Source: Gemmatales bacterium (GTDB taxonomy: Bacteria; Planctomycetota; Planctomycetia; Gemmatales; HRBIN36). Taken from it: a stretch of 64,000 nt of DNA. The position numbers and the translations under genes are program-made. Where the stretch lies: contig JBEPZY010000004.1 in assembly GCA_041640595.1 (NCBI GenBank), positions 194,373 to 258,372 on the forward strand, given 5' to 3'. Below are positions 2,382-47,913 of the stretch, piece by piece (position 1 is the stretch's first letter; every line of letters starts with the position of its first letter). Under the pieces are notes generated by a model, which was not told the origin of the DNA, ran no database searches, and saw nothing but the letters and a program-made list of their open reading frames with translations.

Positions 2382-2617
2382 GCCTGGTTCACCGTATCGG
2401 CGTTGCTTTTGGACTTCGCGGACGCTCACAAGTGCATGCCCGTGGTTGTTCTGGTTCGCAGTATCAGCGCTTTGCCCGGACTTCAGCAACCCTCGCAAGC
2501 GGATGCGCATTGTCGGCCTGGTTCATCATCGGTGTTCCATCCGCAGTCCGCGAACACAACCTCGATGCTGATCCGAACAGAGCCTCGTTCATCATCGGCG
2601 TTACACCCGCAGCCCGC
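2382..2617. repeat. Degenerate repeat-spacer array, 4 copies, period 66-67 nt
   Basis: CTGGTTC/CTCGTTC core at 2384, 2451, 2518 and 2584; copies 2516-2551 and 2582-2617 match at 31/36 nt with a dissimilar 30-nt interval. Confidence 0.7.
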
Positions 2618-2923
2618 TCATTTCCACAACGGTTCGCCCGGCGCGCGACCTATTTTCGGACAATCGCCCGGTAAGGTGGATTTTCTCTCCAAGCCGCGGC
2701 ATCGGCTACCGTGTCCAGGCTGACAAGCCGGTTGCATGACTCCTGCACACTGGATTTGTTCGCATCAGCGCGACCGGCAGCACAACGTCCGCAACAAGTT
2801 GCATGAACCCTGCACGCAGGGTTTCTTCACCAGCCGAACGGGCCGGCAATACGCCGCCGCGTGTCCTCTGGTGAACTTGCGCTGCGGGCCAGTTTTTTCG
2901 CCGGTCGTAAGCATCACCGGCCT

Positions 2924-4810
2924 TCATTGCAACGGAGCAAATCCGAGCGAACCGCCGCCCAGTAACCGCGCCCCGAGCCGACCGCTCTGGTGGAGCATTT
3001 CTTCCAGTGCCTTCTGGACATCGGCCAACTGGAGTGTTCCGGTACCGCCTTCGCTGACGTGAAACTGCCACGCCCGACGCATCAGTTCCTTGATAAATGC
3101 AGCACTAGCCTGGTTAGTCCGCCGAACAATTTCTTCCAGCACCGCTTCCGGTATCGAGAGCCCGCGGCCATACAGTTGGGCCAGTCTTCTGCGGCAGTCT
3201 TCGTCCGGCAGGGGAAATTCGATTGCCTGATCGACACGCCCGGGCCGGGCTGCCAGGGCTTCCTCCAGAACCTCGGGCCGGTTCGTGGTCAATATGAACA
3301 ATATCTCGTTATCTTCGCCGATACCGTCCATCTCGTTGAGCATGCGATGGAGCAGCGGCAGGCTACTGCCTGGAAAGTCTCTATCTTCGCCTATCAAGTC
3401 CACGTCCTCAATAACGACCACTGCCGGCTGGAGTTGTCGGGCGAGGTCAACGTAGGCATCGAGGTAGGCCATCTGCTCCGCACGCACCAGCGCCACGGTT
3501 TGTCCCAGTTTCGTCAACTCGCTGATGAGATAGGCAATGGTGTGGGTTTTTCCGGTACCCGGAGGCCCGTAAAACAAGACGCCTTTCTTTACGTGCAGGT
3601 TCCAGTTTTTCAACTGTTGCCGATGGGCAACGAAGCCGAGAACATTTCGCTCGATTACTTCCAGCACCTTGTTGGGCAGAATTACTTCCTCGCGTCGTAC
3701 ATTCGGCACGTCGTGAACCTTGATATGCACGCCTGGACTGCCGAAAAACTCCACGTCCTTTTCCAGCGAAAGCACCTTCGTCCGATAAAAAGGCGATTGC
3801 TTGGCCGCCTCGCGGATGCGGTTGATCAAACTGGAAACCGTTTGTTCCACTTCCGGAGTATTGGGGCCGGCCAGCTGCAACGACACATGCACATCGCCGA
3901 ACCAGGAAGTGCCCATCATCAACATCGCCAGGGGATGCTCACCAACGCGCAGCAGCCACAGGCCATTCTTGACAAACCGCGCTTCCGCATCCTTGCCAAT
4001 GTTGATATGCTCGTACTCGATAGTACCGTAATTCCAGCGGTCTTTACCAGACGCTCCGAGCAGTTGGCTGAAGTTGACTTCCCTGAACAGTTCAATTGCC
4101 CCTGCAATTCTTCCCCTGGCACTACTCACACCCACGCACTGGATTATTTGGGCCTCCTTCTGCAGAACAGCGTCCAGCGCGAACTGGAGATTGGCGCGTA
4201 AAAAATAGGGGAAACGATACACCTGCACGGAAATGTCATTGACATCCCGCACACCCAGATGGTTCATCACCAGCCGTCTAAGGGATTTGGACCGGCCGGC
4301 ACCAGCGGCGGTGCTGCGCTCGCCTCCACTTTCCACCGGATCAGCAGTCATATCGTCCCTCAGTAAATTCAGGACCTCCTCGCGGACTTCTCCCAGGCGC
4401 AGACCCAGGTTCCGCAGTACCTGAGCGGCCACTCCTTCCTCTTCACGCAACAGGCCCAGTAACAAATGTTCGGTGCCGACGTAATTGTGATTGAGATTGC
4501 GGGCCTCTTCGATGGCATACTCGATGACTTTCTTAGCTCGGGGCGTGTACGGGAGTTTCCCCATGGTCACCATTTCGGTGCCGCTTTGCACCAGCCGTTC
4601 CACCTCCTGGCGAACCTTCTGCAGGTCCACGTCCAGATTTCTCAGGACGTTGGCGGCGACGCTCGCACCTTCTTTCACCAATCCCAGCAGAATGTGCTCC
4701 GTGCCGATGTATTCGTGATTGAAGCGCTGGGCCTCTTGTCTGGCCAGTTTCAACACCTTGCGAGCGCGATCCGTAAACCGTTCAAACATGCGTCCTTCAC
4801 TCATGCTCAT
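2924..4810 (-). CDS. Clp N-terminal domain fused to a single AAA+ ATPase domain
   Basis: N-terminus MFERFTDRARKVL...EHILLGL is a ClpC-type Clp_N domain; C-terminal part has Walker A GPPGTGKT, Walker B VVVIEDVD and SRH motif TTNRPE..RPGRVD. Confidence 0.9.
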   Translation of the reverse strand: MSMSEGRMFERFTDRARKVLKLARQEAQRFNHEYIGTEHILLGLVKEGASVAANVLRNLDVDLQKVRQEVERLVQSGTEMVTMGKLPYTPRAKKVIEYAIEEARNLNHNYVGTEHLLLGLLREEEGVAAQVLRNLGLRLGEVREEVLNLLRDDMTADPVESGGERSTAAGAGRSKSLRRLVMNHLGVRDVNDISVQVYRFPYFLRANLQFALDAVLQKEAQIIQCVGVSSARGRIAGAIELFREVNFSQLLGASGKDRWNYGTIEYEHINIGKDAEARFVKNGLWLLRVGEHPLAMLMMGTSWFGDVHVSLQLAGPNTPEVEQTVSSLINRIREAAKQSPFYRTKVLSLEKDVEFFGSPGVHIKVHDVPNVRREEVILPNKVLEVIERNVLGFVAHRQQLKNWNLHVKKGVLFYGPPGTGKTHTIAYLISELTKLGQTVALVRAEQMAYLDAYVDLARQLQPAVVVIEDVDLIGEDRDFPGSSLPLLHRMLNEMDGIGEDNEILFILTTNRPEVLEEALAARPGRVDQAIEFPLPDEDCRRRLAQLYGRGLSIPEAVLEEIVRRTNQASAAFIKELMRRAWQFHVSEGGTGTLQLADVQKALEEMLHQSGRLGARLLGGGSLGFAPLQ

Positions 4811-5007
4811 GGCTGCTCACCTGCTTGCTCATCCGCAACCCGACCGGAACCGGCCCATGCTCCCCTGGCTCCGGGAAGCTGCGTTTAGTCGCATTATACC
4901 TCGCTAATCCCCAGCGGACGAGACGCGACACATCCACTACGCCAGCGGATTGTCAATCTGGCTGATCCCCAGTTTGGTTCGACGCAGGGGATTTCCCAAC
5001 ATATGGC

Positions 5008-5214
5008 CGGACAACGGCTGACGAATAGTCCCATTTTTTCAACCTCGGGCACCGCACGCCCACATCGTTGCCGCGTTCAGGACCGAACAGCACGACCTTT
5101 TTCTCCGCTTAGATGCTCATGCGACGCGCTGCGAAGTACCTGTTCAGCACCGAGCAGCACAACCTTTTTGTCCGCCTCTGGCTGACCGCACGCTCACATC
5201 GGCGCAGTGTTCAG
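5008..5214. repeat. Degenerate repeat-spacer array, period 67 nt, at the left edge of the toxin island
   Basis: GTTCAG starts at 5075, 5142 and 5209; 5075-5110 vs 5142-5177 match at 31/36 nt; a decayed copy lies near 5008-5043. Confidence 0.7.
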
Positions 5215-5750
5215 CCAAGACGATTGCGGCCCATTGCGTGGCTAGCAGTCGGCGGCCCTTTGCCAAAACCTGACGAAGCTAAGGCAGACCTTGCGCGTTC
5301 CAAACGCCCCCCTAGCAAGCACTCGCGGTCCGTAGGCTGGTCCGGTACCAGCCGTAGGCAGGCCTCGCGTGTTCCAGGTGCCCCCGAACAAACAGGCGAC
5401 CCGACGTAACCGTTATGACCCCCATGCCTTACCTCCAGCGGAGCCCCCGTCAAAACCGGCGACGAACCAGACCGTGCATGAGCGCCGCTTGGCAAATTAA
5501 CCAGCAGCAATATCAGGCAGTAATCAACCGGTTTAACAGGGACGCAAACAATCCACCTAATTACAGTGTCTTCGACTATAATTGTACGAACTGGGCATTC
5601 GATGTGCTCAATCGGGAAACTCATATCCGCTGGAGGCCCCAACTTGTACAGGAGCGTGTAACAGGCAGGTGGTTGTTGGCACCAGCTCAAGTCGGTGTAG
5701 AATTGCGCAGGAATCCAGTACCACAAAACGGGATAGGGTTAGAACCCTAA
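5215..5750 (+). pseudogene. Orphan toxin C-terminal fragment, papain-like/PPPDE-like 'NC' peptidase
   Basis: ...NPPNYSVFDYNCTNWAFDVL motif; the 5' part is broken by stops, frameshifts and an internal duplication; directly followed by a secreted protein gene. Confidence 0.5.
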
Positions 5751-5782
5751 GCAATGAAAAGTCCATGCGAGGGAGAGCAAAC

Positions 5783-7078
5783 ATGACCAGGTCTCACCGA
5801 GTGGTGAAGCTGGCGGTCTTCTCAATGTTCGCGGCTGTCCTGGGAGGGATAATTAGCATGTCGCTGGCGGCTAGAAAAATCTCCGTTCTTGGAGACCTCG
5901 AGGACTGTGCACACGTAAGATTGTCTTTGCAAGATGGCCAGGTTCGAGTGCACGCTATAGAACCCTCAGGCCGGTTACTCATGCTCGACTTGAAGACTAA
6001 GGAAATCAAAAAACTGAGGGTAAAAGATTTAGAACTTGACGGCACGCAGCACATCTCCGTCGGAGGCCTGTTTGCCCCTATGAGTCCAACTCATTACGGT
6101 GTTAGAGCTCCAGATTCAAGCTTAGTCAACCTTTTTGTCGTGAGGGGAGCCGGTGAGGATTGCCAAACCTGGCTAGTTGATTTAGATACTGGAGCCGCCG
6201 TACTTCGACTCGAGGGTGGCTGGTACTGCTTGCCTACCGGCGATGGGATCTACGTTGTCTGGTCAGGCGAGCGAATACCTGGAAAAACGAAGCAGGAGTA
6301 TATTATCTATCGCTATGCAAATGCTAGGTTAGAAAAATTCTCGTCCTGGCAGCCTGATTTACCCATACAGAGTATTCTTTTTGCTCGATCACACGGAAAC
6401 TCGATTCGTATAGTTTGCGAGCGTCTCGTAGGAGAGAATCAAGGTACCCAACACAAGGTCGGGCAATTAGGACAAGCTCGTGCTATTTATCTCATAGATT
6501 TAGAAACACAGACAGCCAGAGTCCTGAGGTCTAAAAAGGTATTGGAGCTAAAACGCACTCCAGGCCGTGACAAGTCCTGGCCTTCAGCAGCAGTCTTCCC
6601 CGCACCATCGCCTGATAGCGTCTATATATACGAGCCTCAGAATCGTTCTCTCTATCTTTTTGACTGGAAGACGCTCCAAATGATTCGTGAGTTAAAACTG
6701 CGGATTCAAAAGAACTCAGAGGATAATGAATGGGAGCTCATTCCCTTCTTTATTATCCATCCTAATAAACCTCTGGCATTGCTGGTGTTTCCTATGGGGT
6801 TCGTATATCTGTTAGACTTGTCAGACGGTAGCCTTCGCCTATTGGGCGATGAACATTTCAAGAAGTTAAATCAATTTGTCATGACGCGCAGCCAGGAAGA
6901 GCCACTGGTTGGGTTAGCGGCAGTGCATTTTATGATGAAAGATGGAGTTTTCATGCCTAACGAGAATCAGGTGGTTGTAGTCGCGGGTTCTGGACATGTT
7001 TATATTTACAACTTAGCGCAGTCCAGACTGGACGCAGTTTTTCGTCTGACAGCAGAAGACCTCTTCGAACGCAAATAA
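5783..7078 (+). CDS. Secreted/membrane-anchored beta-propeller-like protein, candidate immunity protein
   Basis: ATG at 5783 after GGGAGAG; hydrophobic N-terminus; repeated 'W/YLxDLxTG'-type blade motifs; lower GC than the backbone. Confidence 0.7.
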   Translation: MTRSHRVVKLAVFSMFAAVLGGIISMSLAARKISVLGDLEDCAHVRLSLQDGQVRVHAIEPSGRLLMLDLKTKEIKKLRVKDLELDGTQHISVGGLFAPMSPTHYGVRAPDSSLVNLFVVRGAGEDCQTWLVDLDTGAAVLRLEGGWYCLPTGDGIYVVWSGERIPGKTKQEYIIYRYANARLEKFSSWQPDLPIQSILFARSHGNSIRIVCERLVGENQGTQHKVGQLGQARAIYLIDLETQTARVLRSKKVLELKRTPGRDKSWPSAAVFPAPSPDSVYIYEPQNRSLYLFDWKTLQMIRELKLRIQKNSEDNEWELIPFFIIHPNKPLALLVFPMGFVYLLDLSDGSLRLLGDEHFKKLNQFVMTRSQEEPLVGLAAVHFMMKDGVFMPNENQVVVVAGSGHVYIYNLAQSRLDAVFRLTAEDLFERK

Positions 7079-7121
7079 ATTAATAAACCACCGTCAATAT
7101 AATTTTGCCTGTCCTGCGCAC

Positions 7122-12610: not shown

Positions 12611-14786
12611 TTAGCCTACCTGCACGAAGACGATCTCTAAAATGGTCGGGTCATTTTTCTTAGCCCGCAATCCCGCTGGGAAAACGTATACGAAACCATC
12701 CAGAGCAGCGTTCTCCCACTCATTTTTCCGTGCTGTATGGTCCTCCGCCATAAGAAGGATCATAATAGGCATCTGCAACCCGCACGACGAAATGATTTGC
12801 AAAAGCGGAAGGTGGATCGGGATTGCCTTGTCCCGGTACCCCCGCTTTTGGCTTAACTTCGGAGACCGTCGGGTCATCCAAATCTATTATATATGTGTAG
12901 GGACTAGTCGCTGGAGAACCGCCTGCGCCGTTGAATTCCCAGTTCTTGACCAGCATACCTGTTCGCCACGGTAGGGCATATAGTCCGGTGACTGGGTCTA
13001 TGGGTTGGTCAGCACTAAATACCATGAATTTTCTAGCCCCCTGAACGCTTATGGCCCCGTAAGTATCTATCAGCAACTCGGCCCAGGAGCCGCACTGGCC
13101 GTTTGCGTGGGCTAAAAGTTGCTGTGTGTTGACCGCAGTGGCCCTGCCGCCAGCCCAGTACCTCAATTGAGTGTCATCCACACGACGGACTTCCCGATCA
13201 GTGAAATCACTCCAAATTGCTGAGATAACATCTGATTCGTTTGTTTTGCCGTCAGCGTTCTTCGAGCCCAGATGCACCAGGGTATGGTATAAGTTTACCC
13301 CTGGTTTGAGGGCAGGGTCGGCAAAAGTAAGGTACAAAGGATTTGGCGTCGACCCCGCCTTCGTCCAGGTTGAGTTGGCGCGCTGGCTGTCGGAGGTGGC
13401 TTGCCAGTCCAGCCTGAAGAGATTTGCACCAACGTAAGCTTGCACCACATTCGGAAATGCCACCGGCGACTCCGTTACGTCAAGCACGAGTTCAGTCGGG
13501 TTCGTCGGGTCGACGCGCACAGCCTTCGGCCCTACGTGAATCTGGAATCCCGTCGCAGGGTCCGCCGGCCCCGTCGCCATCACATAAATCGGGCCGCCAC
13601 CCCACGCAGTATCTAAGACGAACCGGGCACTCACTTTCAACGTTGTACCCCGGGTGTAAGCGTATGGCCAGCTATGCTCATCCGCATCCTCCGCATCCCC
13701 GTCTAAGTTTTTGTCCAACCAGTGTTCCGAACTATAGGCCACGTCGGGAGCTATTACTCCAGTCGGGTCCAGCTCCGGGTCCCGGTACACGGTATGCCCG
13801 CCGCTGAACGTTACCGACCGGATACCAAGGATTTTAGCCGTGTGAACAACGACCGTTTGCGTCGCCTCGGCAACCCCATCACTAACGGTGTACGTGAACG
13901 AGTCGTCCCCAGTGTGTGGAGCATCTGGCCGCTCGACTGCATAATAAACAAAATCACCGTTGGGATTCATCACCAGCTGAGCACCGGATGGTAGTCGCAT
14001 CAACTGCCGCGGTGGCTGATCGTTAATCTTGACCACGCGTAAGCTATCGCCATCGGCGTCAGTATCGTTCGCCAGGACGTTTCCCCGAACGGCACTCCCC
14101 GCCAGGACGTAATACTCGTCATTTACAGCCTCCGGAGCAGTGTTATGAACAGCAATCCAAGCCACAGCCATTTGTCGGAACTAGAGAATTCATTTGCCAA
14201 CCAGAGAGGAGCAGTGTTATGAACAGTGTCCAAGCCATAGCCACTGGGATTGTTAACAGTGAGTTTATTATACTGGTAGTGGAGCAGTGTTATGAACGGT
14301 GATCCAAGCCATAGCCAGGCCTAAAGCTATACCATCCGTAAACCCAAATACAAAAGCATCGGTGCCAGTATAACCAGCCGCCGGTGTATATCTAAACCTG
14401 CCATCATCATTCAATACCACCGTGCCATTCGTCGGAGCGGAGATTAGTTGCGCCGAGAAAACGCTGGGGCTTGAAAGCATTGGCACGGTGATAGCGTCGC
14501 CGTCCGGATCGTAGCCGCAGAGCTGGCCGACCAACTCGCGGTCGTGCAATACACTGAAACTCTGCATGGCGCCCAGCTGGGCAGACCTCCACCTATAGTA
14601 GCCGGTCGGTTTGTGATCATCCAATACGCTGAAGCTGGCATCGTAGGCATACGGCGCGTTGTTATAAACATCTATCACGACAGTGGCCGTGTTGCCGGTG
14701 GTCAGCCCATCCGACCAGGTGTAGGTGAAACTATCCGTACCGACGTAGTGCGTGTTCGGTGTATACGTGAAGCTGCCGTCGGGAAG
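12611..14786 (-). pseudogene. Orphan cassette: Big_9 stalk repeats plus transglutaminase/papain-like Cys-His-Asp toxin domain
   Basis: ORFs 14268-14678 and 12720-14171 are in the same frame; motifs GQCGSWA, FANHFVV and YYDPSYG; one extra A near 12723-12727 truncates the C-terminus (EWENAALDG continues in ORF 12611-12877); no start or signal peptide. Confidence 0.75.
14134..14317. repeat. CRISPR-like mini-array inside a coding sequence: three 36-37-nt repeats and two unique 37-nt spacers
   Basis: Repeats at 14134-14170, 14208-14243 and 14281-14317 (GGAGCAGTGTTATGAAC...CCAAGCCAYAGCCA); spacers at 14171-14207 and 14244-14280. Confidence 0.9.
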
Positions 14787-22021: not shown

Positions 22022-23779
22022 TTATTGATTTTCCAAGTACGAATGGCCATACAGCCAATACTTCCACCCACTCGGGGTTGCCAAGAAGACAAGACGAAAC
22101 TCGTGTACCCGACTTTTGAGAGTCACTAGACAAACGTCCGGATTATAGTGCGTAATGGCTTCCATAGTCGCAGAGCTAAGGTTGCTAATAGCGGAGCGAA
22201 AGGTTCGCACCTCAGGGTACGAATCTACTCCGAAAATACTCAGGCGGGACAAGGTCACCTTGTCGTCAGCAATCACTGCATCGGCAAACTCCGCTAGAGT
22301 CGTGACCAAATCTACCATGCCCTGCCAGCGACCCTGCGATGTGCGTTGCCAGTGATCCTTCGGCAAACCTTGGGGTAGACGCGGGCCAGCCGGGCCCACT
22401 GGACGGTTGTACACTAAGTGGCACGGAGTGCTAAGTAGCGATACGGACGTAACTTGCGGTTGGCTGTTATTTTGGCAGTAACGCTCTATATCGCTTGATA
22501 ACGCCGTTTGGTGCTGCGCTTTTTGCTGCGCCTGGATTTTTGCGCTCGGAATTGTCGCAATTGCATTGTCTTGCTCGGCAGCTGCGGGTATTGCCGTCGG
22601 TTGGCGTTGCAGGGTAGCGGTTCCGGTTGGCAGTTGCTCGGCCGTACCAGGCTGCCCGCTGACGCCTGCCGCTTTCCGGAAGTGTTCGTCCGTTACGGAA
22701 CGGTAAAACTGGTCGGCAATCGCTTGGCTATGGCCCAGCCAGGCCGCGCAAGTATGCGAGGGGAAAATATCGGCCAGCTCGGTCGCCCGTGTAGCTCGCA
22801 TGTTCTGAAACGGTTTCGGCCAGGGTTGAACGCCTGCCAGTAGGCAGTAGCGGTTCAGTTGGGTTCGCAGGTTGGCATCCGGCTTGTAGCGAGTAATCAC
22901 TTGGTCGGGTGCGCCTTCCGGCAGTTGGTGCCATAGTTCCTCTAAGTATGGCCGTACCTCGGCAAAAATGGGAATAATCCGGACGCCTTGGTCGGGATGG
23001 TGTGCGGTTTTTGGCGAACGGATAATCATCCGATGATTGGCCCAGTCTATATCCGACCAGCGTAGTGTGGCGATTTCCGACGGAATGCGTAATCCTGCCC
23101 AGCGTGCCAGCGCCACAATCAGCCGAAACTGGGGGCAGGGAATTACGTCCAAAACTTTCCTAACTTCGTCCGCAGGAATCAATTTCCGACGGCCAGGATC
23201 GCCTTGGACGGTCAGTCCCTTGATATGCTCAAAAGGATTGCTGGCAATGTAACCGCGTCGGCAGGCTGCGCGGAAAAACTCCTTGATTAGCCGCGTCCAT
23301 TTATTCGCCGTTGCTTTGGCTCGGCCTCGGAGTAATTCAGCCCGAATACGGTCGGCATCCGCTGGGCTAATTCGGTCTAGCGGTGTATTCGGGTCAACCG
23401 AACGGAGTAACCAACGGGCAGCTTGCCGCAAAATGATATGTGTGGACGGCTTGACCTCGGCAGCCCGCAATTGTAAGTGCTCGGCAATAAACTCGCCCAG
23501 AGTCGGTGTCCGTTGACGCTGGCGCGGTTCCGCTAAGTCCCAGGCTTCCAATTTCCTGTAGATGCGTTCCGGCAGGCTGTCCAGCCATTTTGCAGTTGCT
23601 AATGGCAAAGGCGTTGCCGTAGTTTTGGCCGCAACCAGTTCGCGCACGTGTAGGGCGATATGCTCGGCAGTCTTACGGTCTCTGACGCCAGGCAACCGCA
23701 ACGCTCGCCGGATGCCGTGATGATCGAAAAAGTCAATCCGGTAGATGCCGCTTTTTGGGTCTTTCAATATACTGGCCAT
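22022..23779 (-). CDS. Tyrosine recombinase/integrase; the ORF reads through the att site into host sequence below ~22390
   Basis: GLRIPSE (R), SPKT (K), FQNMR, WLGHS and QFY catalytic pattern; GGAGGA RBS. Confidence 0.9.
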   Translation of the reverse strand: MASILKDPKSGIYRIDFFDHHGIRRALRLPGVRDRKTAEHIALHVRELVAAKTTATPLPLATAKWLDSLPERIYRKLEAWDLAEPRQRQRTPTLGEFIAEHLQLRAAEVKPSTHIILRQAARWLLRSVDPNTPLDRISPADADRIRAELLRGRAKATANKWTRLIKEFFRAACRRGYIASNPFEHIKGLTVQGDPGRRKLIPADEVRKVLDVIPCPQFRLIVALARWAGLRIPSEIATLRWSDIDWANHRMIIRSPKTAHHPDQGVRIIPIFAEVRPYLEELWHQLPEGAPDQVITRYKPDANLRTQLNRYCLLAGVQPWPKPFQNMRATRATELADIFPSHTCAAWLGHSQAIADQFYRSVTDEHFRKAAGVSGQPGTAEQLPTGTATLQRQPTAIPAAAEQDNAIATIPSAKIQAQQKAQHQTALSSDIERYCQNNSQPQVTSVSLLSTPCHLVYNRPVGPAGPRLPQGLPKDHWQRTSQGRWQGMVDLVTTLAEFADAVIADDKVTLSRLSIFGVDSYPEVRTFRSAISNLSSATMEAITHYNPDVCLVTLKSRVHEFRLVFLATPSGWKYWLYGHSYLENQ

Positions 23780-24772: not shown

Positions 24773-24864
24773 CATCTCATCTCATCTTCTTTCATCTAGA
24801 TGAGACGCTTAGAGCTTAGATGAGATGTTAACCATCTCATCTCATCTAGATGAGATGAGATGAG
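24773..24864. repeat. CATCT pentamer repeats with a perfect 30-bp palindrome
   Basis: 24833-24862 reads CATCTCATCTCATCT/AGATGAGATGAGATG; further half-sites at 24773-24827. Confidence 0.85.
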
Positions 24865-24889
24865 AGGCGGTATGGGGGAGAGAAGTGTA

Positions 24890-32330: not shown

Positions 32331-32508
32331 GAGAAAAGGCGCACATAGACTTGGGCGGTGGGTCGGGAGGTGACAGGTCAGGGGCGAGTCCAGCGTGACA
32401 ATGGTCGGAAAAGCGGGGCCAAGATTCCACCATAGGGGTGACGACAACGAAAACACCCGGGTCGCAGTGGTCGGAAAAGCAGGGCCGGGGGTGGTGTGGA
32501 TGCGGACG

Positions 32509-36371: not shown

Positions 36372-36388
36372 ATTTCTGAGGTCTGGCC

Positions 36389-39028
36389 ATGATGCTGCTT
36401 TGGAAGCCACGTCAGCTGTGGCCAAGTGGGGCAAGGTTTGGGCTGGTGCTATCGCTGGCCACGAGCCTGATCGTGATGCTGGCTGCGCAAACGCCTGTGG
36501 AGGAAAAGGAGGAGAGCAAGCCACCCAAATTGCGCAGCGATCTGCCCCTGTTGCCGCCGCTGGAGTCGCTGCAAAAGATCGTGGTGCAGCCGCTGGCCGA
36601 GTTATTGCTTGAAGCGGAACGTACCAGTCATCCGGCCGTCCGCGACTTACTGCGTCGGCTCGCTTATCCGCACGACCGGGTCGTGTTACGCAATGGCAGT
36701 GTTTTGCGCGTGGCGCCCCTGGCTCGTCCTTTGGAACAGGAAAAAGCGGCGCAACTGAAATTGCAAGTGATTACTCCCACCGGGCAGCTGGAGACGCAAC
36801 GTGCGGTTGCTCGCGACGAGGTGCTGCGGGTGGAGTATTTCGAGCGGTTTGCGATACAGGAAGTGTTGCAGCTAGGCCAGGAGACGGGTGCCGGTAAATC
36901 GCCTATGAAACAATCGCAGGTGCTGCGTCTGGCGGAGTTTGTCCTGGAACAGCTGCTGGCGTTTCACGGTCAGGGAATACGTGCGGAAGGTTGGGGCGAT
37001 GTTCAGAAGCAGTTGCAGCAGCAACTCAAGCAAACCCGGTTGCAATGTCTGGCGGCTTTGCAGCAGGAGAATCAGTGGCAGGAAGCCACCGCCTGGGCCG
37101 ATCGTCTCCTGGAGGAGTACAAGGGAGATGCGGAAATTGTCGCCCAGTTTCGTCAGCTTGTTGAAACCACCGCGGAACAGGCAATCGCCCGAAAGGATTA
37201 CGTTACGGTTCGGCGGGTCCTCGACCGCTTGAATGCCCGCTTGCCAGGCACTACCAGTCCCGCTCTGGAACGCTACCAGCGTGTCCTGTACGAACACGCT
37301 GAGTCGCACCTCAAACAGGCACAGCAACTGCAGGAAAAAAACGACTGGGTCTCCGCCTGGCTAGCCGGAGCCGAAGCCGCTCGCCTGGCACCGAACTGGG
37401 AGCGCGTGCAATTGTTCCAACGCCAGCTTTTACGCCGTTATCCCTTCCTTATCGTGGCAGTGCCGCAGTTGCCGCACACCACCTGGCCACCGCTGGCTAT
37501 GACCCTGAGCGACCAGATGGCTGTCAGCCTGCTTTACGAATGGCTCATTGAACCGCGTCAACCACCGCTGACCAGCGCAGGATACTGGAGCAGTCCGGGT
37601 TTTGCTCCTTTTCGGCAGCGCGGCTCGTGGTTTTTCAACTGGCCCAGTTACCCTCTGCTTTTCGCCACTTCGTCAGGAGAACGGCTGGCACGCTGGCAGG
37701 ATGTGCAGTTCAGCCTGCATTGTGCAGGCGACCCCCAGCTCCTGCTGTACGAACCCCTGTGGGACAAACGCTGGTCCACCTGGCACACCATCGAACTGTC
37801 CACCGGCCAGTGGCAGGTGCAGATGCCTTTGAGTTGGGGCGACCCGATGCGGCTTTTTTACCTCCCCTTGCTGCCAGCTACCGATGAGAACTCCTCGCAT
37901 CCGGGAGATTCTGGCAAGCAGCTTCCAGCTCCGTTTGTCGCCGGGACTGGCCCTTATGTTCTTGCGGAACGCTCGGATAACCAGTGGGTGTTTCGTGCTC
38001 GTCCCGGCTGGGTCCGACCCCATGCCCAGGAAGGGCCGCTTCTGCGAGAGATTCGCTTCCGCCGTTACACGGATATTCGCCAGGCTCACGAGGACCTGGA
38101 ATGCGGAGCCGTTCACCTGGTGGTCGGTCTGACGGCACGCGATGCCGATACCTTTGCGAACATTCCGCACGCACGCATTGTCTGTCTGCCCAGGCAGGAA
38201 GTTGCTCCCGGCGGTATCGCTTTCAGTCCCCGCGTGGCCATGCTGGCTTTCCATCGCCGCCGGCCCACCGTTCAGTCCGCGCTCCTGCGACAGGCCATCT
38301 CGGCCGCTCTGGATCGGCAAGCGCTCTTACAAACCCATTACCGCGGTCGCGACCCCACCACGTATCGCCTCACGGGAGGCCCGGCACCACTGGCCAGCTG
38401 GGCTTACCATCCCGACTATTCCCCGACGCTGCGTTCGCCTTATCATCCCGCAACCGCCCGCGAGCTTTTCCAGCGTCTTGCCGGGCCGGCTACGGGCAAG
38501 CCCGGTACTTCCGGAGCAAAACCGTCTTCGACCCTGCCCACGCTTTCCCTCTGGTATCCTCAAGAGGAAGCCGCAGTGCATTCCGTAGTCCAGGACATTC
38601 GCAATCAGCTTGCCGCTTACGGATTGAAGTTGGAACTTCGAGCCGCAACCGCTCAGGAAATCCTCGCCGCCTGGAAAACTCCTAACCCGCCTTACGACGT
38701 GCTGTTCTGGATTGCCGAATACCCTGCCGAAGGCATGACACCGTTCCGCTGGCTTAGTCCTGCCCCACCAGGCCAGGCCTGGCCCGACCCCTTCGGGCTT
38801 GCCGATGAGCCTACCGTTGCCCAGCTTCGCCAGCGCTACTGGCAAAGCGATGACCCGGCCAGCTCCCGGAGAACTCTCCACCAGCTTCACGCTCACCTCG
38901 TGGATCAGGCCTGGATTGTCCCGCTCTGGGAAATGGACCGTTTCGTGGTTGTCTGGAAGAATCTTGGTATCCCGTATTTCCACCCGTGCTGGGTTCTCCA
39001 CCACGTCGAATCCTGGACGTGGAACTAA
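36389..39028 (+). CDS. ABC transporter substrate-binding protein (family 5-like) with a helical N-terminal region
   Basis: Signal peptide; GTGPYVL and LRQAISAALDR motifs. Confidence 0.75.
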   Translation: MMLLWKPRQLWPSGARFGLVLSLATSLIVMLAAQTPVEEKEESKPPKLRSDLPLLPPLESLQKIVVQPLAELLLEAERTSHPAVRDLLRRLAYPHDRVVLRNGSVLRVAPLARPLEQEKAAQLKLQVITPTGQLETQRAVARDEVLRVEYFERFAIQEVLQLGQETGAGKSPMKQSQVLRLAEFVLEQLLAFHGQGIRAEGWGDVQKQLQQQLKQTRLQCLAALQQENQWQEATAWADRLLEEYKGDAEIVAQFRQLVETTAEQAIARKDYVTVRRVLDRLNARLPGTTSPALERYQRVLYEHAESHLKQAQQLQEKNDWVSAWLAGAEAARLAPNWERVQLFQRQLLRRYPFLIVAVPQLPHTTWPPLAMTLSDQMAVSLLYEWLIEPRQPPLTSAGYWSSPGFAPFRQRGSWFFNWPSYPLLFATSSGERLARWQDVQFSLHCAGDPQLLLYEPLWDKRWSTWHTIELSTGQWQVQMPLSWGDPMRLFYLPLLPATDENSSHPGDSGKQLPAPFVAGTGPYVLAERSDNQWVFRARPGWVRPHAQEGPLLREIRFRRYTDIRQAHEDLECGAVHLVVGLTARDADTFANIPHARIVCLPRQEVAPGGIAFSPRVAMLAFHRRRPTVQSALLRQAISAALDRQALLQTHYRGRDPTTYRLTGGPAPLASWAYHPDYSPTLRSPYHPATARELFQRLAGPATGKPGTSGAKPSSTLPTLSLWYPQEEAAVHSVVQDIRNQLAAYGLKLELRAATAQEILAAWKTPNPPYDVLFWIAEYPAEGMTPFRWLSPAPPGQAWPDPFGLADEPTVAQLRQRYWQSDDPASSRRTLHQLHAHLVDQAWIVPLWEMDRFVVVWKNLGIPYFHPCWVLHHVESWTWN

Positions 39029-39731
39029 CCACCCAGGCTATTAGCCCGGCAAGCTACCACCGCTCCACCTCGTCGAATCCTAGAGCCGCAATTAACCACC
39101 CCACCACCAGCAACTGATCCGCAGCACTATAAGAATTATTTTAGGCCTCCGCCCCTTGGCGTCGGTGGTACTAACATTGCCCCTATGACAAGCATCCAAC
39201 GCCCCACATCTTACCCTCAAGGGTACTAACATTGCTCTCCGCGAGCACCGCGCACTATAATAAGCGTCCCATACCTCTGCGTCTTACCCCGCTTCGATTC
39301 CCGTTGGCGAGTTAGTCATCCGATTCAAGGGACTACAGCGTCCTAAGTCTCCGCACCCTAACCGGCCTTGATTCACTGACGGTGAAATGTTGGCCGCTAT
39401 CGTAATTGCTACGTCCCCACATATTAACCCACCTTGGTTGCCGCAAAGCCAATCCTTACTGCCACACTTGCTTGCTAACTTCTCGCAGAGTTGCTAACGC
39501 TGCAATGATATAGCTTTGTCGCCCTATTATTAGCGACAACCAACGGTGCAGCATGACTCGCATATTGGGACCACCGCGACGTTCTAATTTGCCGTCATGG
39601 CCTTTGTAAGCCCCGTCACCACGGGTGTTGTGCTTAAGCGTCTGAGCCACATCTTAAGCGTCTGAGCCGCATATTGACAATTGCTAATCGCAAACATGCC
39701 TTCCGACAGGCCGTGCTGTCTGCGCACTTTC

Positions 39732-41435: not shown

Positions 41436-41458
41436 AGCTTGGCCTCCGTAGGAAAATT

Positions 41459-41890: not shown

Positions 41891-42177
41891 GTGTGAAAGC
41901 AAACGGGTCGCGGGGGTGAATGTTGGCGGCAAGGGCGATAACGAACGGTCACGCTGGTTTGCTTTGCAGAATGATCAGCAGTCAACGAATTCCTTGCCTC
42001 AGCTCCTTGATTGCCGTGGGGGCCGCAGCGGATTATCGTAATTTCAACCGGCACGGTGCAGGACTACTGCGTACATTGATTGTCTGGGACGCAGGAAAGT
42101 ATCGTAATTTCAACTGGCTCCGACGGTCGCGGATTCGGCAAGCCAGTATTTGGAACATTCTCGATGGAGAAAGGGCC

Positions 42178-43620
42178 ATGAGACGTCTGGCGATTTATTC
42201 GCTGCTGACGGGCGTGTGGGTAATGGCGGGTGATGTGATAAGCGCGGCAGAGCGGCCCAACTTTGTGCTGATCACCTGCGAGGACATTTCGCCGAACCTC
42301 GGCTGTTACGGTGATCCAGACGCGATCACACCTAACTTAGATCGCCTGGCTGCTCAGGGGGCACGCTTCACGCGTGCGTTCACCCATGCGCCGGTTTGTG
42401 CACCGTCGCGTTCGGGAATCATCACCGGCATGTACCCGACGACACTGGGAACTCACCACATGCGTTCCAAGCTGACGCGAACGCCGCCGCTATTTACGGA
42501 TTATCTGCGTAAGGCCGGTTATCGTGTCATCTGGCCGGCTCAGGGCGGCATTGGCAAAACGGATTTCAACTTCGATGTCCCCAAAGGATGGGTGGATGTT
42601 CAGGTGGATTGGACGCGCCAACCGGAAGTGCTGCAACCGCCGTTTTTCGCTATTTACAACATCACGGTCACGCATGAAAGCCAGGTGCGTGCGAGCCGGT
42701 ATCAGTACGTTCGCAACACCGCCCGCCTCAAACCGGAGCAACGCCACGATCCGAACAAAGTCCGCATTCCGCCATACTATCCGGACACCTGGGCAGTGCG
42801 CGATTGTGTTGCTGTCTATCACGACAACATTACCGCGATGGACTATATCGTCGGCGACATCTTGAAGTTGCTGGAGGAAAAGAAGCTGGTCCAAAACACG
42901 ATCGTGATTTTCTATAGCGACCACGGTGCCGGTTTGCCCCGCTGCAAGCGCTGGCCCTACGATAGCGGTTTGCATGTGCCGTTGTTAGTTCGCTGGCCGG
43001 GAGTGATACCGCCCGGCACGGTGCGCGACGATCTGGTCGCCCTGCTGGATATTGCTCCGACTCTGCTAGCACTGGCCGGTGTGGAACCGCCGAACTATAT
43101 GCACGGGCGAATATTTCTAGGGCCTAACACTCAACCCGAACCGCAGTACTTATTCGCCGCCCGCGACCGCATGGACGAAGCCTACGACCGCATCCGTTCC
43201 GTCCGCGATCGCCGTTACCGCTATATTCGCAACTTCCATCCCGAACTGCCCTACATGCAGTACATCAACTACATGGACGAAATGCCCATTATGCGGGACT
43301 GGCGACGGTTGGCTTTTGAAGGTCGGCTCAATCCGACGCAAAAGTTGTTTATGAGCCGCACTAAGCCGAAAGAAGAACTCTACGACCTCGACAACGATCC
43401 TTACGAAATCAACAACCTGGCTCAGTCGCCACAGCATCAGGAGATCTTGCAACGAATGCGCGCCGCCCTGGATCGCTGGATCGCCGAGACGAAAGACCTC
43501 GGCGAGATACCCGAACAAGAACTCATCCGCCGCGGTATCGTGCATGATGTTTTGTCCAAGGAATACGAAGCCCGCCGCAAACTCCACCCCAAAACCCCTC
43601 CCGTCCCGCAAGACGATTGA
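42178..43620 (+). CDS. Sulfatase (formylglycine-dependent)
   Basis: RPNFVLITCED, CAPSRSGIITG and SDHG motifs; signal peptide. Confidence 0.95.
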   Translation: MRRLAIYSLLTGVWVMAGDVISAAERPNFVLITCEDISPNLGCYGDPDAITPNLDRLAAQGARFTRAFTHAPVCAPSRSGIITGMYPTTLGTHHMRSKLTRTPPLFTDYLRKAGYRVIWPAQGGIGKTDFNFDVPKGWVDVQVDWTRQPEVLQPPFFAIYNITVTHESQVRASRYQYVRNTARLKPEQRHDPNKVRIPPYYPDTWAVRDCVAVYHDNITAMDYIVGDILKLLEEKKLVQNTIVIFYSDHGAGLPRCKRWPYDSGLHVPLLVRWPGVIPPGTVRDDLVALLDIAPTLLALAGVEPPNYMHGRIFLGPNTQPEPQYLFAARDRMDEAYDRIRSVRDRRYRYIRNFHPELPYMQYINYMDEMPIMRDWRRLAFEGRLNPTQKLFMSRTKPKEELYDLDNDPYEINNLAQSPQHQEILQRMRAALDRWIAETKDLGEIPEQELIRRGIVHDVLSKEYEARRKLHPKTPPVPQDD

Positions 43621-43645
43621 CCCGTGCGATAAGACTGCCGTAAAT

Positions 43646-43906
43646 AGGAACGCATAGCATTCCGAGCACAAGATAACTGGTTGCAGGAACGTAAAAACGA
43701 AATTGTGGGTGTAGCGTAACAGAGATGCATAGCATTGCAAGCACAAGATAACTGGCCGGAGGAACGTAAGAACGAAATTGCGGGTGTGGCGTAACAGGGA
43801 TGCATAGCGTTGCAAGCACAAGATAACTGGTTGCAGGAACGTAAGAACGAAATGGTGGGCGTGGCGTAACAAGGACGCATAGCATTCCGAGCGCAAAATA
43901 ACTCGT
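43646..43906. repeat. 75-nt tandem repeat, 3 units plus a terminal ~36-nt part-unit
   Basis: GCATAGC starts at 43652, 43727, 43802 and 43877. Confidence 0.9.
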
Positions 43907-43925
43907 GCGAATTACGCAGGCCGCA

Positions 43926-44218
43926 GTTCCAATCCCACCGGCATGATGGCAGGTATCTTAGTTTGTGCGCAGGCTCCGGTCGCTGTACGGTGCGGAATGT
44001 TTCAATCCCACCGGCGTGATGGCAGGTCTGTTGGTTTGTGCGCAGACTCCGGTCGCTCTAGGGTGCGGAATGTTTCAATCCCACCGGCATGATGGCAGGT
44101 ATCTTAGTTTGTGCGCAGGCTCCGGTCGCTGTACGGTGCGGAATGTTTCAATCCCACCGGCATGACGGCAGGTATGCTAGTGATCGGGTTGAGCAGCCGT
44201 AACTCGCCAGCCTCGTAG
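43926..44218 (+). repeat. 73-nt-period array with a CRISPR-like 37-nt repeat (GTTTCAATCCC...); three near-identical spacers, then one unique 37-nt spacer
   Basis: Repeat starts at 43926, 43999, 44072 and 44145; unique segment 44182-44218. Confidence 0.85.
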
Positions 44219-44700
44219 GTTTCCATACCGACAGCACGTTCACCTATACACCGAACACGCACTATGTTGGCCCGGATAGCTTCACCTATACCTGGTCGGA
44301 TGGCCTGACTACCGGCAACACCGCCGCCGTCACTATAGATGTGTACAACAACGCGCCGTATGCCTACGATGCCAGCTTCAGCGTATTGGATGATCACGAA
44401 CCGACCGGCTACTATAGGTGGAGGTCTGCCCAGCTGGGCGCCATGCAGAGTTTCAGTGTATTGCACGACCGCGAGTTAGTCGGCCAGCTCCCTGTACGGC
44501 TATGATGCCGATGGCGATGCTATCACCGTGCCAATGCTTTCAAGCCCCGGCGTTTTCTCGGCGTAATCAGCCTCCGGCCCCACCAACGGGCCGGACCAAC
44601 GGTACACTAACACTCAATCCTGACGGCAGCCTTACCTATACATCGAACACGCACTATGTTGGAACGGATAGTTTCACCTATACCTGATTGGCTGGGTTGC
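44219..44700 (+). pseudogene. Isolated Big_9 stalk fragment, an inverted close copy of 14449-14786
   Basis: Same repeat DNA including the same 75-nt and 33-nt insertions; frameshifts and stops. Confidence 0.85.
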
Positions 44701-44886
44701 TAACAGGCGAAGCGGCTAAGATTCTGAATCGCCGCTGGTGGTGGTAAGTTTTTCGAGGTCGGGGGATGGGATTGAGCTTGCCGATTTTGGCGGGTGAGGT
44801 GGCTTAACAAATCCTGCGGGTGTGCATTGCGATACGTGAGGCGGGCAGACGGTTTGCTCCATGCCGACCAGCAGCGCATAATTGCC

Positions 44887-45212
44887 GCAGAGCGGGTGCT
44901 GGTCGGTTGGCATCACGCCGACACCGAACAACCTGGAATAGAGGAACCATAGCGCTGAGGCAGAGCGGGTGCTGGTCGGTTGGCATCACGCCGACACGGC
45001 AGAACCTGTAAGAGCCGAACCATAGTGCTGAGGCAGAACGGGTGCTGGTCGGTTGGCATGACGCCGACACCGAACAACCTGGAATAGAGGAACCATAGTG
45101 CTGAGTCAGAGCGGGTGCTGGTCGGTTGGCATCACGCCGACACGGCACAACCTGGAGGAGAGGAACCATAGTGCTGAGACAAAGCGGGTGCTGGTCGGTT
45201 GGCGTCAGGCCG
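44887..45212. repeat. 73-nt tandem repeat, 4 units plus a ~34-nt part-unit
   Basis: AGCGGGTGCTGGTCGGTTGGC-like units start at about 44887, 44960, 45033, 45106 and 45179. Confidence 0.9.
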
Positions 45213-45228
45213 TGAAGGAGAGTGCAGG

Positions 45229-45444
45229 ATGCGCTGGATGCTGAGCTTGCTCGTGATAATTCTGGTCGGTTGTCGCACCATTGTCGGTCCGCTGGAACCG
45301 CGACGGGCAGAGCGTGCCGATGATCCCTTGCTCAGCACGCAGGAGCAGGCCCGACGAAGCCGGTATCTGTATGCGTTTCCGGATACGGAACTGGGCCCGC
45401 GATCTGGTCCGGAACGTCCCATTGCGGCAGCTCCGGCTCCGTAA
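45229..45444 (+). CDS. Small lipoprotein
   Basis: AAGGAG RBS; MRWMLSLLVIILVGC lipobox. Confidence 0.75.
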   Translation: MRWMLSLLVIILVGCRTIVGPLEPRRAERADDPLLSTQEQARRSRYLYAFPDTELGPRSGPERPIAAAPAP

Positions 45445-45725
45445 ATAAGCGAATGTTCTGGCCGCGAATATACGACCGTTGCGTCCGCTAAGTTTGGCAT
45501 GGCCTTCTGACTCAGTTAACGGGCGTTGCGAATGGCATTTGTGCGAAGGTGTGGTTGCAGGGGGTCTTTGGGGAGTTTCCGTGGGCAGGTGGTGCGAGCA
45601 TTTCGCATGGTACCGCAGAGCACTGCGGTTGCTATAACAATTGCGCTGATGGAGCGGTGAGGCGACGTGCGGGAGGGCGGAACAGGCGGCACAGCTTTCG
45701 GTGTGGGTAACTCTGGAGGTGCACC

Positions 45726-46145
45726 ATGCTGGCCAGGCATAGCGCGGTCGTCCTGCTGGGGGTGCTGATTTGCGGTTCTGGCTGTCAGTCGCCCGAACAT
45801 CAGGCGCTGGAACCGCTGCCGGCCAATGCTCCACCCCTTGCCTACCCGGAACTGGTAGAACGTGCCCGACGGCAAGTTTGGGCGGCTCAGGAGATATTTT
45901 ATCGCGACGAATGGGACCAACTGGTCAAGGCGGCGGAGACTCTCGGCCAGACGGCACAACAGCTGGCCCAGTTTCGAGCCGACCAGGTGCCGGCACGGTG
46001 TCGGGAACTGTGGCCGAAACCGGTCGAGGAATTCCGTTCCGCGGCCACGCAACTGCAGCAACACGCTCGCCAGCGCGATGCCATTCTTGCCGCCGGGGAT
46101 TTCCAACGCCTGCACCTGGCCCTCAAGCAAATTCGCCCGGAATAG
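45726..46145 (+). CDS. Helical lipoprotein, hypothetical
   Basis: GGAGGT RBS; lipobox GSGC. Confidence 0.75.
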   Translation: MLARHSAVVLLGVLICGSGCQSPEHQALEPLPANAPPLAYPELVERARRQVWAAQEIFYRDEWDQLVKAAETLGQTAQQLAQFRADQVPARCRELWPKPVEEFRSAATQLQQHARQRDAILAAGDFQRLHLALKQIRPE

Positions 46146-46476
46146 GCGCGAAAAGCAATTGGCCGGCACGCTGGGCGCAACTCTGGCCAGCTCTGTTGTC
46201 GGGCGGGGTCGCGCTGAAACAAAACTGCCCCGGCAGCGGAAGGCGTTGCCCCAGCAGATCGCGGATCAGGCAGCGCCCCAATCACCGTCGCATATTCGCC
46301 ATTCCGCATTCCCCGTGGGCTTTACTCAAGTGCACCGCGAAAGAATACCCGGCCCTGACCAGGGCGCCAGCGATTTTGACGCTCGAACCGAGCACGCTCA
46401 TGCCGAGGGAAAGACCTGATGGCCGGCATTTCGGCAGTATGATTTGTATGCAAGAAGCATGGAACGGAGGCTATCT

Positions 46477-46746
46477 GTGAAGGTGCGACCGATTCTGCCG
46501 TTCTGGTTTCGCCAGCGGCAAATCCAGGCGGAGCCCGTTGGCGAGAACGCTTTACGCTTGCAGGGGCCCAACCTGCCACCGTGCGAAGTGCGAATCGAGC
46601 CGGGCGAAAATGGCAACTGGCGAGGATTAGTCGTTCGACTGGACGGCGAGCTCCAGGTCATCGCCAGCGGTACCGCCGTCGAACCACATCCCCAGTCCGC
46701 CTGGCAACTGGCTTTCGAACTCTACCGCAAATCGGTCGTCAACTGA
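46477..46746 (+). CDS. Hypothetical protein
   Basis: GGAGG RBS before GTG; host-like codon usage. Confidence 0.6.
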   Translation: MKVRPILPFWFRQRQIQAEPVGENALRLQGPNLPPCEVRIEPGENGNWRGLVVRLDGELQVIASGTAVEPHPQSAWQLAFELYRKSVVN

Positions 46747-47029
46747 TCGGCAGGTGGAGGGGGAAGGTTCACGGGGTCAAAATCTTCCGGCGATTTGCTG
46801 CCTGTGGACGCATCCGCCCTTGCCAGAACCGTAGCCCGACTTACAATTACTTGCTGCAAGCCTATCACCGAACAACAATGTCCACGTGAAAATGCCGAAG
46901 GGCCGGGATGGTCGTTGCCGATCTCTACCTAACCCGGAAGAGGTCGGCCAGACCAGGGATGTAACCGGTCATTCCGGCTGCTGGTAACTGAACCCGACCA
47001 TCATCACCGAGACCAGCGCGAAATTGCTT

Positions 47030-47102
47030 GGGGGGTTAGCTCAGCTGGGAGAGCGCGTGAATGGCATTCACGAGGTCAGGGGTTCGAATCCCCTACCCTC
47101 CA
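47030..47102 (+). tRNA. tRNA-Ala (GGC)
   Basis: Cloverleaf with TAGCTCAG D-arm, CGTGA-ATGGCAT-TCACG anticodon arm, GGTTCGAATCC T-arm and a G3:U70 pair; CCA not encoded. Confidence 0.95.
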
Positions 47103-47913
47103 CTGCGTGGAGCGCTGGCATGTCGGAATCGCTGGGCCGTTCGTAAAACTGAGTGCGTTGCGATAGCGCGTACGGTTGGAGTTTCCTACGCCCGACTGCT
47201 CAGTGTGCCAAACTGTTGCGCCATCCTGTTGTGGCTGCCGGCAATACCAAGCCTGGCGTGGGGCTTGTTAGGGGAGAAACCATCCGCTGCTGCTGGTTAT
47301 CTCGAAGGACTGATTCCATTCAGGGCATGCCGCTGGCGTGTCGCTGGATGTGGCAGGCCGGCGGGAATTGGCACTGGCCACGTAGCCTGGTCCGTATCGC
47401 TGGGTTTGGTTAGTAGCATTGGCAAGCAGGGCAGGGCAAAGCGTGACGCGGAAAGCAGGCCTGACGCCAATCGCCAGGCAACCGCCCCATTTTCGGGATA
47501 ACCCCCTTCGAGCGATCGAAACGCGCTGGGACAGGCGGAGCAGTTCTGCAAGCAATCGGCCAATTTTCGGGATAACTTTCCCTTCTAACCTGCCGTACTT
47601 GCCTGACATTTCCATCCGTGCATCAGAGTTTCCGCAGGGGTAATCCCTTGGAAGTTAGAAAGTCGAAGTCGGAGGTTGGTTGCACACAACATGACTGCTC
47701 GGCCGAAGTGCGGGCATTACCGATAGGAACATGGAAGCGGACTCTGTTTTCGTGGACGAACATGCCCTCTCAAGTGGGGGCCTTATCGGGATAAGCAACT
47801 CGACGGTCAAATTGGCACAAGCTGGAGACGCGGTAGCTGGGATCGGTCTTCTTGCGGGATGTGTGCCCAGCGAGTGCTGGTCTGGATTTCGAGTTATTGG
47901 GATGGGAGCCGGC

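Follow-up and report, generated by a model that had tools for sequence, protein, structure and literature searches.

What process leaves short repeat-insert-repeat units, each with a repeat of its own, scattered along a bacterial chromosome? The question is raised by a stretch of 64,000 nucleotides (nt) from a Gemmatales bacterium (G000:C4:194373-258372, hereafter the window), which belongs to a 4.45 Mb assembly of 42 contigs (the source genome, G000). The original prediction for this DNA listed a series of such loci, placed them in two period classes with repeats that differ from locus to locus, and attributed them to one or two promiscuous Cas1-type integrases. The listed loci are real, all of them having been recovered by a repeat search, a lag scan or comparison with paralogs, and sequence comparison makes it very probable that they are scars of ectopic spacer integration by the genome's own two CRISPR adaptation modules. 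No cas gene is present within the window. The genome contains two Cas1-family genes, each adjoining one true CRISPR array, so that the presumed agent missing from the window is present twice in the genome.

Direct repeats were sought across the genome at every lag from 30 to 169 (seeds of at least 18/20 matches, +1/-2 extension). For the lag counts, true CRISPR arrays were removed first and the best lag was kept for each locus, giving 688 loci at lags 40-124. The ectopic loci form two classes, with 156 at lags 65-68 (class A; 65:22, 66:75, 67:40, 68:19) and 186 at lags 72-76 (class B; 72:29, 73:52, 74:50, 75:41, 76:14), over a background of 0-10 loci per other lag, except for an unrelated class at lags 87-94 that is described below. 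These sharp peaks bear out the two predicted periods, and the bimodality is real even inside the window, where a scan of the window only (lags 40-124) gave 6 segments at 66-67, 8 at 73-75, 4 at 91-93 and 6 elsewhere. A single insert (S) between two copies of a duplicated segment (R) is found at 147/156 class A and 151/186 class B loci. The matched length has a mode of 30 nt in class A (28:14, 29:13, 30:18, 31:15; 60 loci at 28-31) and of 37 nt in class B (36:11, 37:16, 38:14; 41 loci at 36-38). As predicted, R sequences are unrelated from locus to locus, and they are likewise unrelated to both CRISPR repeats of the genome. The two R copies are identical in 21/147 class A and 18/151 class B loci and most commonly differ at 1-3 positions, which implies events of a range of ages, while the 298 single inserts fall into 289 clusters and are therefore nearly all independent. 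Surviving scars lie mostly in non-coding DNA: by our own crude gene calls (coding fraction 0.797), the insert is placed in predicted non-coding DNA at 127/147 class A and 135/151 class B loci, with some scars in genes (in the window at 14134, at 14526 and at a gene end at 38996). Loci no more than 300 nt apart form 63 neighbouring pairs, compared with 20.7 +/- 4.2 under random placement with the same coding share, and the stretch at 43643-45212 of the window is one such cluster.

The dimensions of both classes are those of the two true arrays. True array 1 (type I-B) has a 30-nt repeat present 344 times, 317 on C8:3-21080 and 27 at the end of C10, with a modal period of 66 (65:36, 66:165, 67:108, 68:26, 69:5). 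Beside it on C8 are genes for Cas2, Cas1b (425.5 bits against the type I-B model), Cas4, Cas3, Cas5b and Cas7/Cst2, with a type III-B Cmr2-Cmr6 module after them. True array 2 has a 37-nt repeat present 247 times on C1:359749-377934, with a modal period of 74 (72:12, 73:81, 74:99, 75:38, 76:11), and is directly preceded by genes for Cas2 (Pfam E 2.9e-12), a 550-residue reverse transcriptase (RT) of the group-II-intron type and a 342-residue Cas1. Spacers of both arrays are 35-39 nt long and total 587, and both repeats end in GGGATTGAAAC. The modal R lengths of the scars, 30 and 37 nt, equal the two resident repeat lengths, and subtracting these from periods of 65-68 and 72-76 leaves inserts of 35-39 nt, the length of true spacers; exceptions in the window are 2382-2617 (~30 nt) and 38996 (28 nt in G000, 36 nt in two other populations). 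The proposal of one or two promiscuous Cas1-type integrases thus gains two candidate modules elsewhere in the genome with matching periods and R lengths, and the two Cas1 proteins are the probable agents. While the scars resemble the canonical arrays (type I-B on C8/C10, RT-Cas1 on C1) in unit, repeat and spacer length, they differ in having no single conserved repeat family, no leader, no adjoining cas genes and mostly one insert per locus; 14134-14317 is the only window locus with two different inserts.

Paralogs that lack the insert show the state of the target. A paralog on C3 (616262-616665) aligns with window positions 13950-14170 at 95.5% and 14281-14500 at 95.0%, and the two alignments overlap by exactly 37 nt (C3:616446-616482), so that this paralog has the left flank, one R and the right flank, with no insert. 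For 14526-14636 this paralog again shows a single copy of the segment and lacks the 75 nt, as it does in comparison with 44374-44484. These last two loci were taken in the original prediction as products of a single event, which agrees with their being 88% identical copies (the region of 44374-44484 matches C4:208797-209154, window 14425-14782) that both carry the 75 nt missing from C3. At 38996 the comparison was made with three sister genomes of the same genus (G001, G002 and G003), whose coding identity to G000 is 66-79% and whose intergenic DNA is not alignable, leaving this gene end as the sole window scar usable for comparison with them. Four homologous SBP_bac_5 gene ends in these genomes are each single-copy for the R of 38996, and homology stops at 39030. 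The repeat is therefore local coding sequence at 14134 and 14526 (from the C3 paralog) and at 38996 (from the orthologous gene ends), as had been proposed. Genome-wide, insert-free paralogs were found for 17/342 loci, one of the 17 being a leucine-rich repeat (LRR) protein repeat, and where the insert is 65-68 nt the target overlap is mostly 28-35 nt, compared with mostly 36-41 nt where it is 73-75 nt. Such paralogs carry R only and not R+S, which indicates that S is not local sequence and counts against ordinary slipped-strand or unequal-crossover tandem duplication, in which the 'spacer' would be the middle of a duplicated unit.

We also looked at sequencing runs whose contigs carry window DNA (X2, X3, X4 and X5), here treated as other populations; most runs containing this DNA are metagenomes from hot springs and microbial mats. 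Joints in X4 and X5 that skip 75 nt at 44382-44458 were considered as population empty sites and rejected, as they have short sides of 27 nt and the same form as the C3 paralog, from which they may derive.

A few inserts can be traced. The insert at C2:174386 overlaps a true-array-1 spacer (C8:12372-12402) over 31 nt with 1 mismatch and an offset of 2 nt, the insert at C3:643266 is 100% identical to C1:732923-732955 with unrelated flanks, that at C3:484583 is a piece of a 23S rRNA gene (33/34), and that at C2:136237 matches C3:406663-406698 at 34/36. When ambiguous bases are given to the insert, C3:643266 and C3:484583 have R = 30 and S = 36-37. C15-like sequence is matched by one distinct ectopic insert, which occurs at two paralogous loci, and by the spacer of a degenerate I-B-like mini-array. 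Contig C15 itself (9585 nt, GC 0.50) is matched by 32 true-array-1 spacers, nearly all on one strand, and probably represents a plasmid or virus that was binned together with this genome; its protospacers carry 5'-CCD (C at -3 in 28/33 and at -2 in 29/33). The suggested examination of inserts as spacers had a mixed outcome: there is an overlap with a true spacer in one case, several inserts correspond to remote chromosomal or mobile-element sequence with unrelated flanks, and the protospacer-adjacent motif (PAM), considered below, gave no support. Weak support comes from GC content, in which inserts equal the true spacers of the corresponding array (0.550 vs 0.551 and 0.574 vs 0.570). A class B insert at C9:139927 agrees at 23/24 nt with part of the type I-B cas1 gene (C8:23069-23092), beyond which the two differ, as though its source were a related foreign cas1.

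Target edges carry slight signals, which rest on small numbers. R copies end in AC in one orientation at 16/46 and 16/41 precisely sized loci, compared with 11% of random sites, and ATTGAAAC, which occurs 113 times outside arrays, falls precisely on the repeat edge at 3 loci, including tandem array 2 (43926-44181), where three units are so bounded. A de novo orientation and motif search of 18 and 16 precisely sized sites gave information only slightly above null and no usable logo.

The sister species differ in their adaptation genes. G002 has one Cas1, which is RT-linked and followed by an array with a 37-nt repeat, and of the 10 loci in 400 kb of this genome, 7 have lags of 72-76 and none has a lag of 65-68. 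In G001 only an RT-type Cas1 scores above the family cut-off, and 304 kb gave 15 loci, 13 at lags 72-77 and 0 at 65-68. G003 encodes both Cas1b (407.9 bits) and an RT-type Cas1, and 376 kb gave loci at lags 66 (1), 67 (1) and 74 (3). If the mix of classes were as in G000 (156:186), finding 0/20 class A loci in G001 and G002 together would be very unlikely. The presence of the 65-68 class follows that of Cas1b across the sister species, a pattern to be read with the caveat that the three genomes are kin and incomplete (87%, 93% and 78% for G001, G002 and G003), so that a missing Cas1b is not proof of absence. In a different genus of the family (G004), 376 kb contain 5 direct-repeat loci at lags 40-124, all at 69-75 and one with a 38-nt repeat; these may reflect the same process at lower density, the CRISPR array of this genome not having been located.

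On the reading that we favour, Cas1-Cas2 would make two staggered strand transfers at a fixed distance, 30 bp for the type I-B Cas1b-Cas2-Cas4 and 37 bp for Cas2-RT-Cas1, and would place a 35-39-nt prespacer between the staggered sites. Gap repair would then duplicate the target on either side of the prespacer, and the product would be a repeat-insert-repeat of period 65-68 or 72-76 regardless of local sequence. In a separate second step, recombination or slippage between R copies may duplicate whole repeat-plus-insert units to give tandem arrays. This amends the original integration proposal, which did not state unit duplication as a second step for multi-copy arrays, and the repeat and spacer geometry that it described holds at most loci, the departures being tandem arrays 1-3 with their one repeated insert, 2382-2617 (~36 + 30) and 38996 (39 + 28).

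The second step is best illustrated by the cluster at 43643-45212. Tandem array 1 (43643-43906; period 75, ~3.5 units, 3 x 75 + ~36) begins directly after a sulfatase stop codon, tandem array 2 (43926-44181, minus strand) has a period of 73 and ~3.4 units, and tandem array 3 (44887-45212; period 73, 4.5 units, 4 x 73 + 34) lies just upstream of an open reading frame (ORF) starting near 45230. Tandem Repeats Finder reports them as 43652-43903 (period 75, 3.4 copies, 87%), 43926-44175 (73, 3.4, 90%) and 44887-45212 (73, 4.5, 88%). Whole units are repeated at 87-90% identity with the same 'spacer' in each, which makes the three arrays expanded scars and not arrays of different spacers; we infer that they were made by unit duplication rather than repeated integration. 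All three follow n x (R+S) + R, the remainder being about 36, 31 and 34 nt in turn, and genome-wide a remainder of 31-43 is seen in 20/42 class B tandem arrays, compared with 19/91 control arrays of other periods having a fractional copy number of 0.4-0.6 (a comparable range). Bridging contigs of X2, X3 and X4 have exactly one 75-nt unit fewer in tandem array 1 (43829-43903), which fits a single scar that later gained or lost units by recombination between its repeats; population contigs end inside tandem arrays 2 and 3, 29-52 nt into tandem array 2. Secondary expansion of arrays thus behaves like a minisatellite. In tandem array 3, units 1/3 and 2/4 are most alike, implying that a two-unit block was copied. 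The 37-nt repeat parts of its units 1 and 2 are identical and their 36-nt insert parts differ at 8 positions; either divergence was much faster in the insert than in the repeat, or the locus acquired two related spacers.

Among alternatives to ectopic integration, the one that survives best is that some loci are decayed or transferred remnants of canonical CRISPR arrays, which we consider unlikely. Tandem array 2 is the clearest case, as its repeats end, on the minus strand, in CGGTGGGATTGAAAC, the very 15 nt with which the type I-B repeat ends, and I-B-like repeats with 4-7 changes do exist at C3:328836 and C20:1210, the former having a spacer that matches C15 beside a CCG PAM. Nevertheless, the period of tandem array 2 is 73 and not 66, one insert is found throughout and the rest of its repeat is unlike either CRISPR repeat, while elsewhere the repeats consist of native genes or of intergenic sequence unrelated to CRISPR repeats. 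It is highly improbable that an enzyme of some other kind with the same geometry, such as a casposase-like or other staggered-cut integrase, produced the scars and that the match with CRISPR is coincidental. The traceable ectopic inserts without a clear CCD PAM are compatible with such an enzyme, and the link between Cas1 and the scars is one of sequence; yet both target and insert lengths match the two resident systems, the only two Cas1-family genes found each lie beside a true array, the 65-68 class is missing from 704 kb of the two species where Cas1b was not found, and one insert overlaps a true array spacer. Tandem duplication by slippage, scarcely credible overall and already contradicted for single scars, would account for the repetition of whole units, insert included, in the 43643-45212 arrays and at 2382-2617 and for the minisatellite-like differences in unit number between populations, yet it has no length ruler where lags are confined to 65-68 and 72-76, 298/342 loci have ~1.45-1.5 copies and not 2.0, with a duplicated part of 30 or 37 nt, and some inserts match distant loci or a true spacer.

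Several observations weigh against ectopic integration as the source of the scars. Single-copy empty sites, which the original prediction hoped to see in related strains, exist in paralogs but were not seen as polymorphism: the scars at 32390, 38996, 42020 and 47475 are found in every bridging population contig, with no presence/absence difference seen for any single scar, and so they predate the divergence of these strains. The distribution of matched lengths is broad at both ends; lengths of 18-27 come from end trimming, and those of 32-36 are somewhat above the expectation from chance extension. Only a few ectopic inserts could be traced to a source, and at these sources a CCD PAM is not clearly seen. 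For the insert at 14171-14207, viral and metagenome contigs gave no exact match (window 13900-14500 likewise has no match in the phage collection). The expansion at 2382-2617 splits as ~36 + 28-30 in all units, which fits neither CRISPR system and is unexplained, and 38996 splits as 39 + 28 instead of 30 + 36, for which a loss of 8 nt is offered as explanation. Class A tandem arrays fit n x (R+S) + R poorly, with a remainder of 26-31 in only 4/13. Finally, the I-B Cas7 family was found in none of G001, G002 and G003, at their respective completeness.

The remaining loci of the window illustrate the range of forms that the putative scars take. A direct-repeat search recovered pairs spaced by 66-67 nt (2516/2582, 2731/2798, 32390/32456, 38996/39063 and 42020/42086) and by 73-74 nt (14131/14205/14278, spanning 14131-14301, and 47475/47549). 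The locus at 2382-2617, in the gap between an ORF at 440-2053 and a Clp ATPase gene, is an expanded scar of ~3.5 units with four diverged ~36-nt copies at spacings of 68, 66 and 66; its inserts 1 and 2 are alike, so units were copied whole. Two loci go beyond those originally listed, namely 2731-2828 (lag 67, a 31-nt repeat with 25/31 matching, of class A geometry) and a weak candidate at 5282-5385 (lag 74, 24/30 matching). Between them, upstream of the Clp ATPase gene, the predicted locus at 5008-5214 contains a clear repeat-insert-repeat at 5075-5175 (lag 67, 30/34 matching, repeat of 30-34 nt), while its outer parts are only weakly alike; the resemblance of 5043-5074 to 5176-5208, ~134 nt apart, suggests that an older decayed unit surrounds it.

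Two scars lie in the coding sequence of a Big_9/cadherin-like gene. That at 14134-14317 has the structure R(37)-S1(37)-R(36)-S2(37)-R(37) with two different inserts, and the gene is now two minus-strand ORFs, 12720-14171 and 14268-14678, both with Big_9 domains. At 14526-14636 the same gene fragment carries an old in-frame 75-nt insertion (repeat ~37 and insert ~37 nt; R copies ~60% alike), a copy of which is found at 44374-44484 within a Big_9 pseudogene fragment (44219-44720). Both are too diverged for the lag scan and were seen through the paralog without those 75 nt. On the plus strand, the scar at 38996-39101 (lag 67, split 39 + 28, second copy decayed) has as its first R the last 11 codons, the stop codon and 6 nt of the SBP_bac_5 gene (36389-39028). 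In X4 and X5 there are 8 more nt at the junction of the insert and the second R, giving a lag of 75 and a split of 39 + 36, which fits a class B event (~39 + 36) with 8 nt lost in this strain.

Three further scars are single repeat-insert-repeats. That at 32390-32486 (lag 66, a 31-nt repeat at 81% and a 35-nt insert, of class A geometry) lies between two minus-strand genes and is gapless in contigs of X2, X3 and X4, and that at 42020-42118 (lag 66, a 33-nt repeat at 82%), at the 5' end of the sulfatase ORF and upstream of the sulfatase domain, is gapless in contigs of X2 and X3. At 47475-47576 (lag 74) a 28-nt core at 86% ends in GGGATAAC; this scar lies ~370 nt behind a tRNA-Ala gene (47030-47103) and is found in contigs of X2 and X4. 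An origin of the 73-75-nt units from tRNA or other known RNA was ruled out, as ARAGORN and Rfam gave only the tRNA-Ala.

Non-canonical integration by Cas1-Cas2 was reportedly shown by Nivala, Shipman and Church (Nat Microbiol, 2018) to give rise to neo-CRISPR loci in E. coli, and papers citing that work describe it as relying on artificial up-regulation, with circumstantial evidence in two other species. As far as those accounts go, the scars resemble neo-CRISPR loci in having a spacer-sized insert and a repeat-length target duplication outside an array, and in that arrays can grow from such sites. They differ in being fixed in a wild genome, at ~340 loci compared with 587 canonical spacers, in involving two modules (type I-B and RT-associated) in at least 4 species of one genus, and in the expansion of many into tandem arrays with one repeated insert.

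Ectopic acquisition has been described inside type II-A arrays of Streptococcus thermophilus and S. mutans (PMC7999890, PMC5338259, PMC8265633). In what these reports describe, integration likewise occurs away from the leader-proximal repeat, but uses a canonical repeat within the array, whereas the targets here are unrelated chromosomal sequences. For Pyrococcus furiosus Cas1-Cas2 in vitro, off-target sites are described as revealing repeat elements that guide the integrase (PMC6698737). The AC ends and ATTGAAAC edges are reminiscent of these, with a motif signal that is weak and of small number; by that account the P. furiosus work used purified proteins and minimal substrates, in contrast to the natural genomic record examined here (PMC6698737). 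In a limited literature search we found no description of hundreds of natural scars, of scars from RT-linked modules or of satellite expansion. The events are of a known kind in a new and much larger natural form.

Off-target spacer integration has so far been regarded as an oddity of the laboratory and as one way in which new CRISPR arrays might arise. The wild lineage studied here offers ~340 events apparently from two unrelated modules, with sister species as natural controls, and so a ready data set on what Cas1-Cas2, including the RT-linked form, recognises in non-CRISPR DNA. Nearly all surviving scars lie in the 20% of the genome called non-coding, which puts a number on the cost of adaptive immunity, and the tandem arrays offer a concrete route from one integration error to satellites and candidate new arrays. 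More tentatively, and as a proposal that we think has perhaps a modest chance of being correct, ectopic integration could be a continuing major source of new DNA in the genus, which would build a sizeable share of intergenic sequence, seed tandem satellites, add in-frame peptides, break genes and create proto-arrays, some starting to work as new CRISPR arrays because their repeat ends in the CRISPR RNA (crRNA) handle ATTGAAAC (tandem array 2, 43926-44181); the scars would then also be the first natural record of target choice by an RT-associated Cas1-Cas2.

The loci at lags 87-94 were considered as a third geometry and rejected, since they belong to a high-copy dispersed family of the REP/MITE type (repetitive extragenic palindrome/miniature inverted-repeat transposable element) with a conserved inner sequence and 139-217 matches of at least 80 nt. 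In the window, REP/MITE-like units of 91-93 nt each are found at 55663-55882, 63340-63451, 63522-63641, 63786-63906 and 63976-64000; their boundaries are formed by a GC-rich hairpin of 29 nt, CAAGAGCGGCGGGCGTCAGCCCGCCGTGG or a variant of it, and the family gives the 87-94 lag peak. The region at ~6000-31000 is an island of lower GC (0.49-0.53), in which there is a gene of the phage-integrase family (22022-23779, minus strand) and several Big_9/cadherin-like repeat proteins are encoded. A portion of the island is duplicated at 95% identity on C3 near 613-617 kb, and the pseudogene fragment at 44219-44720, between the tandem arrays, also comes from it. Within the island, 24773-24865 forms a perfect palindrome of pentamer repeats, with runs of CATCT opposite runs of AGATG.

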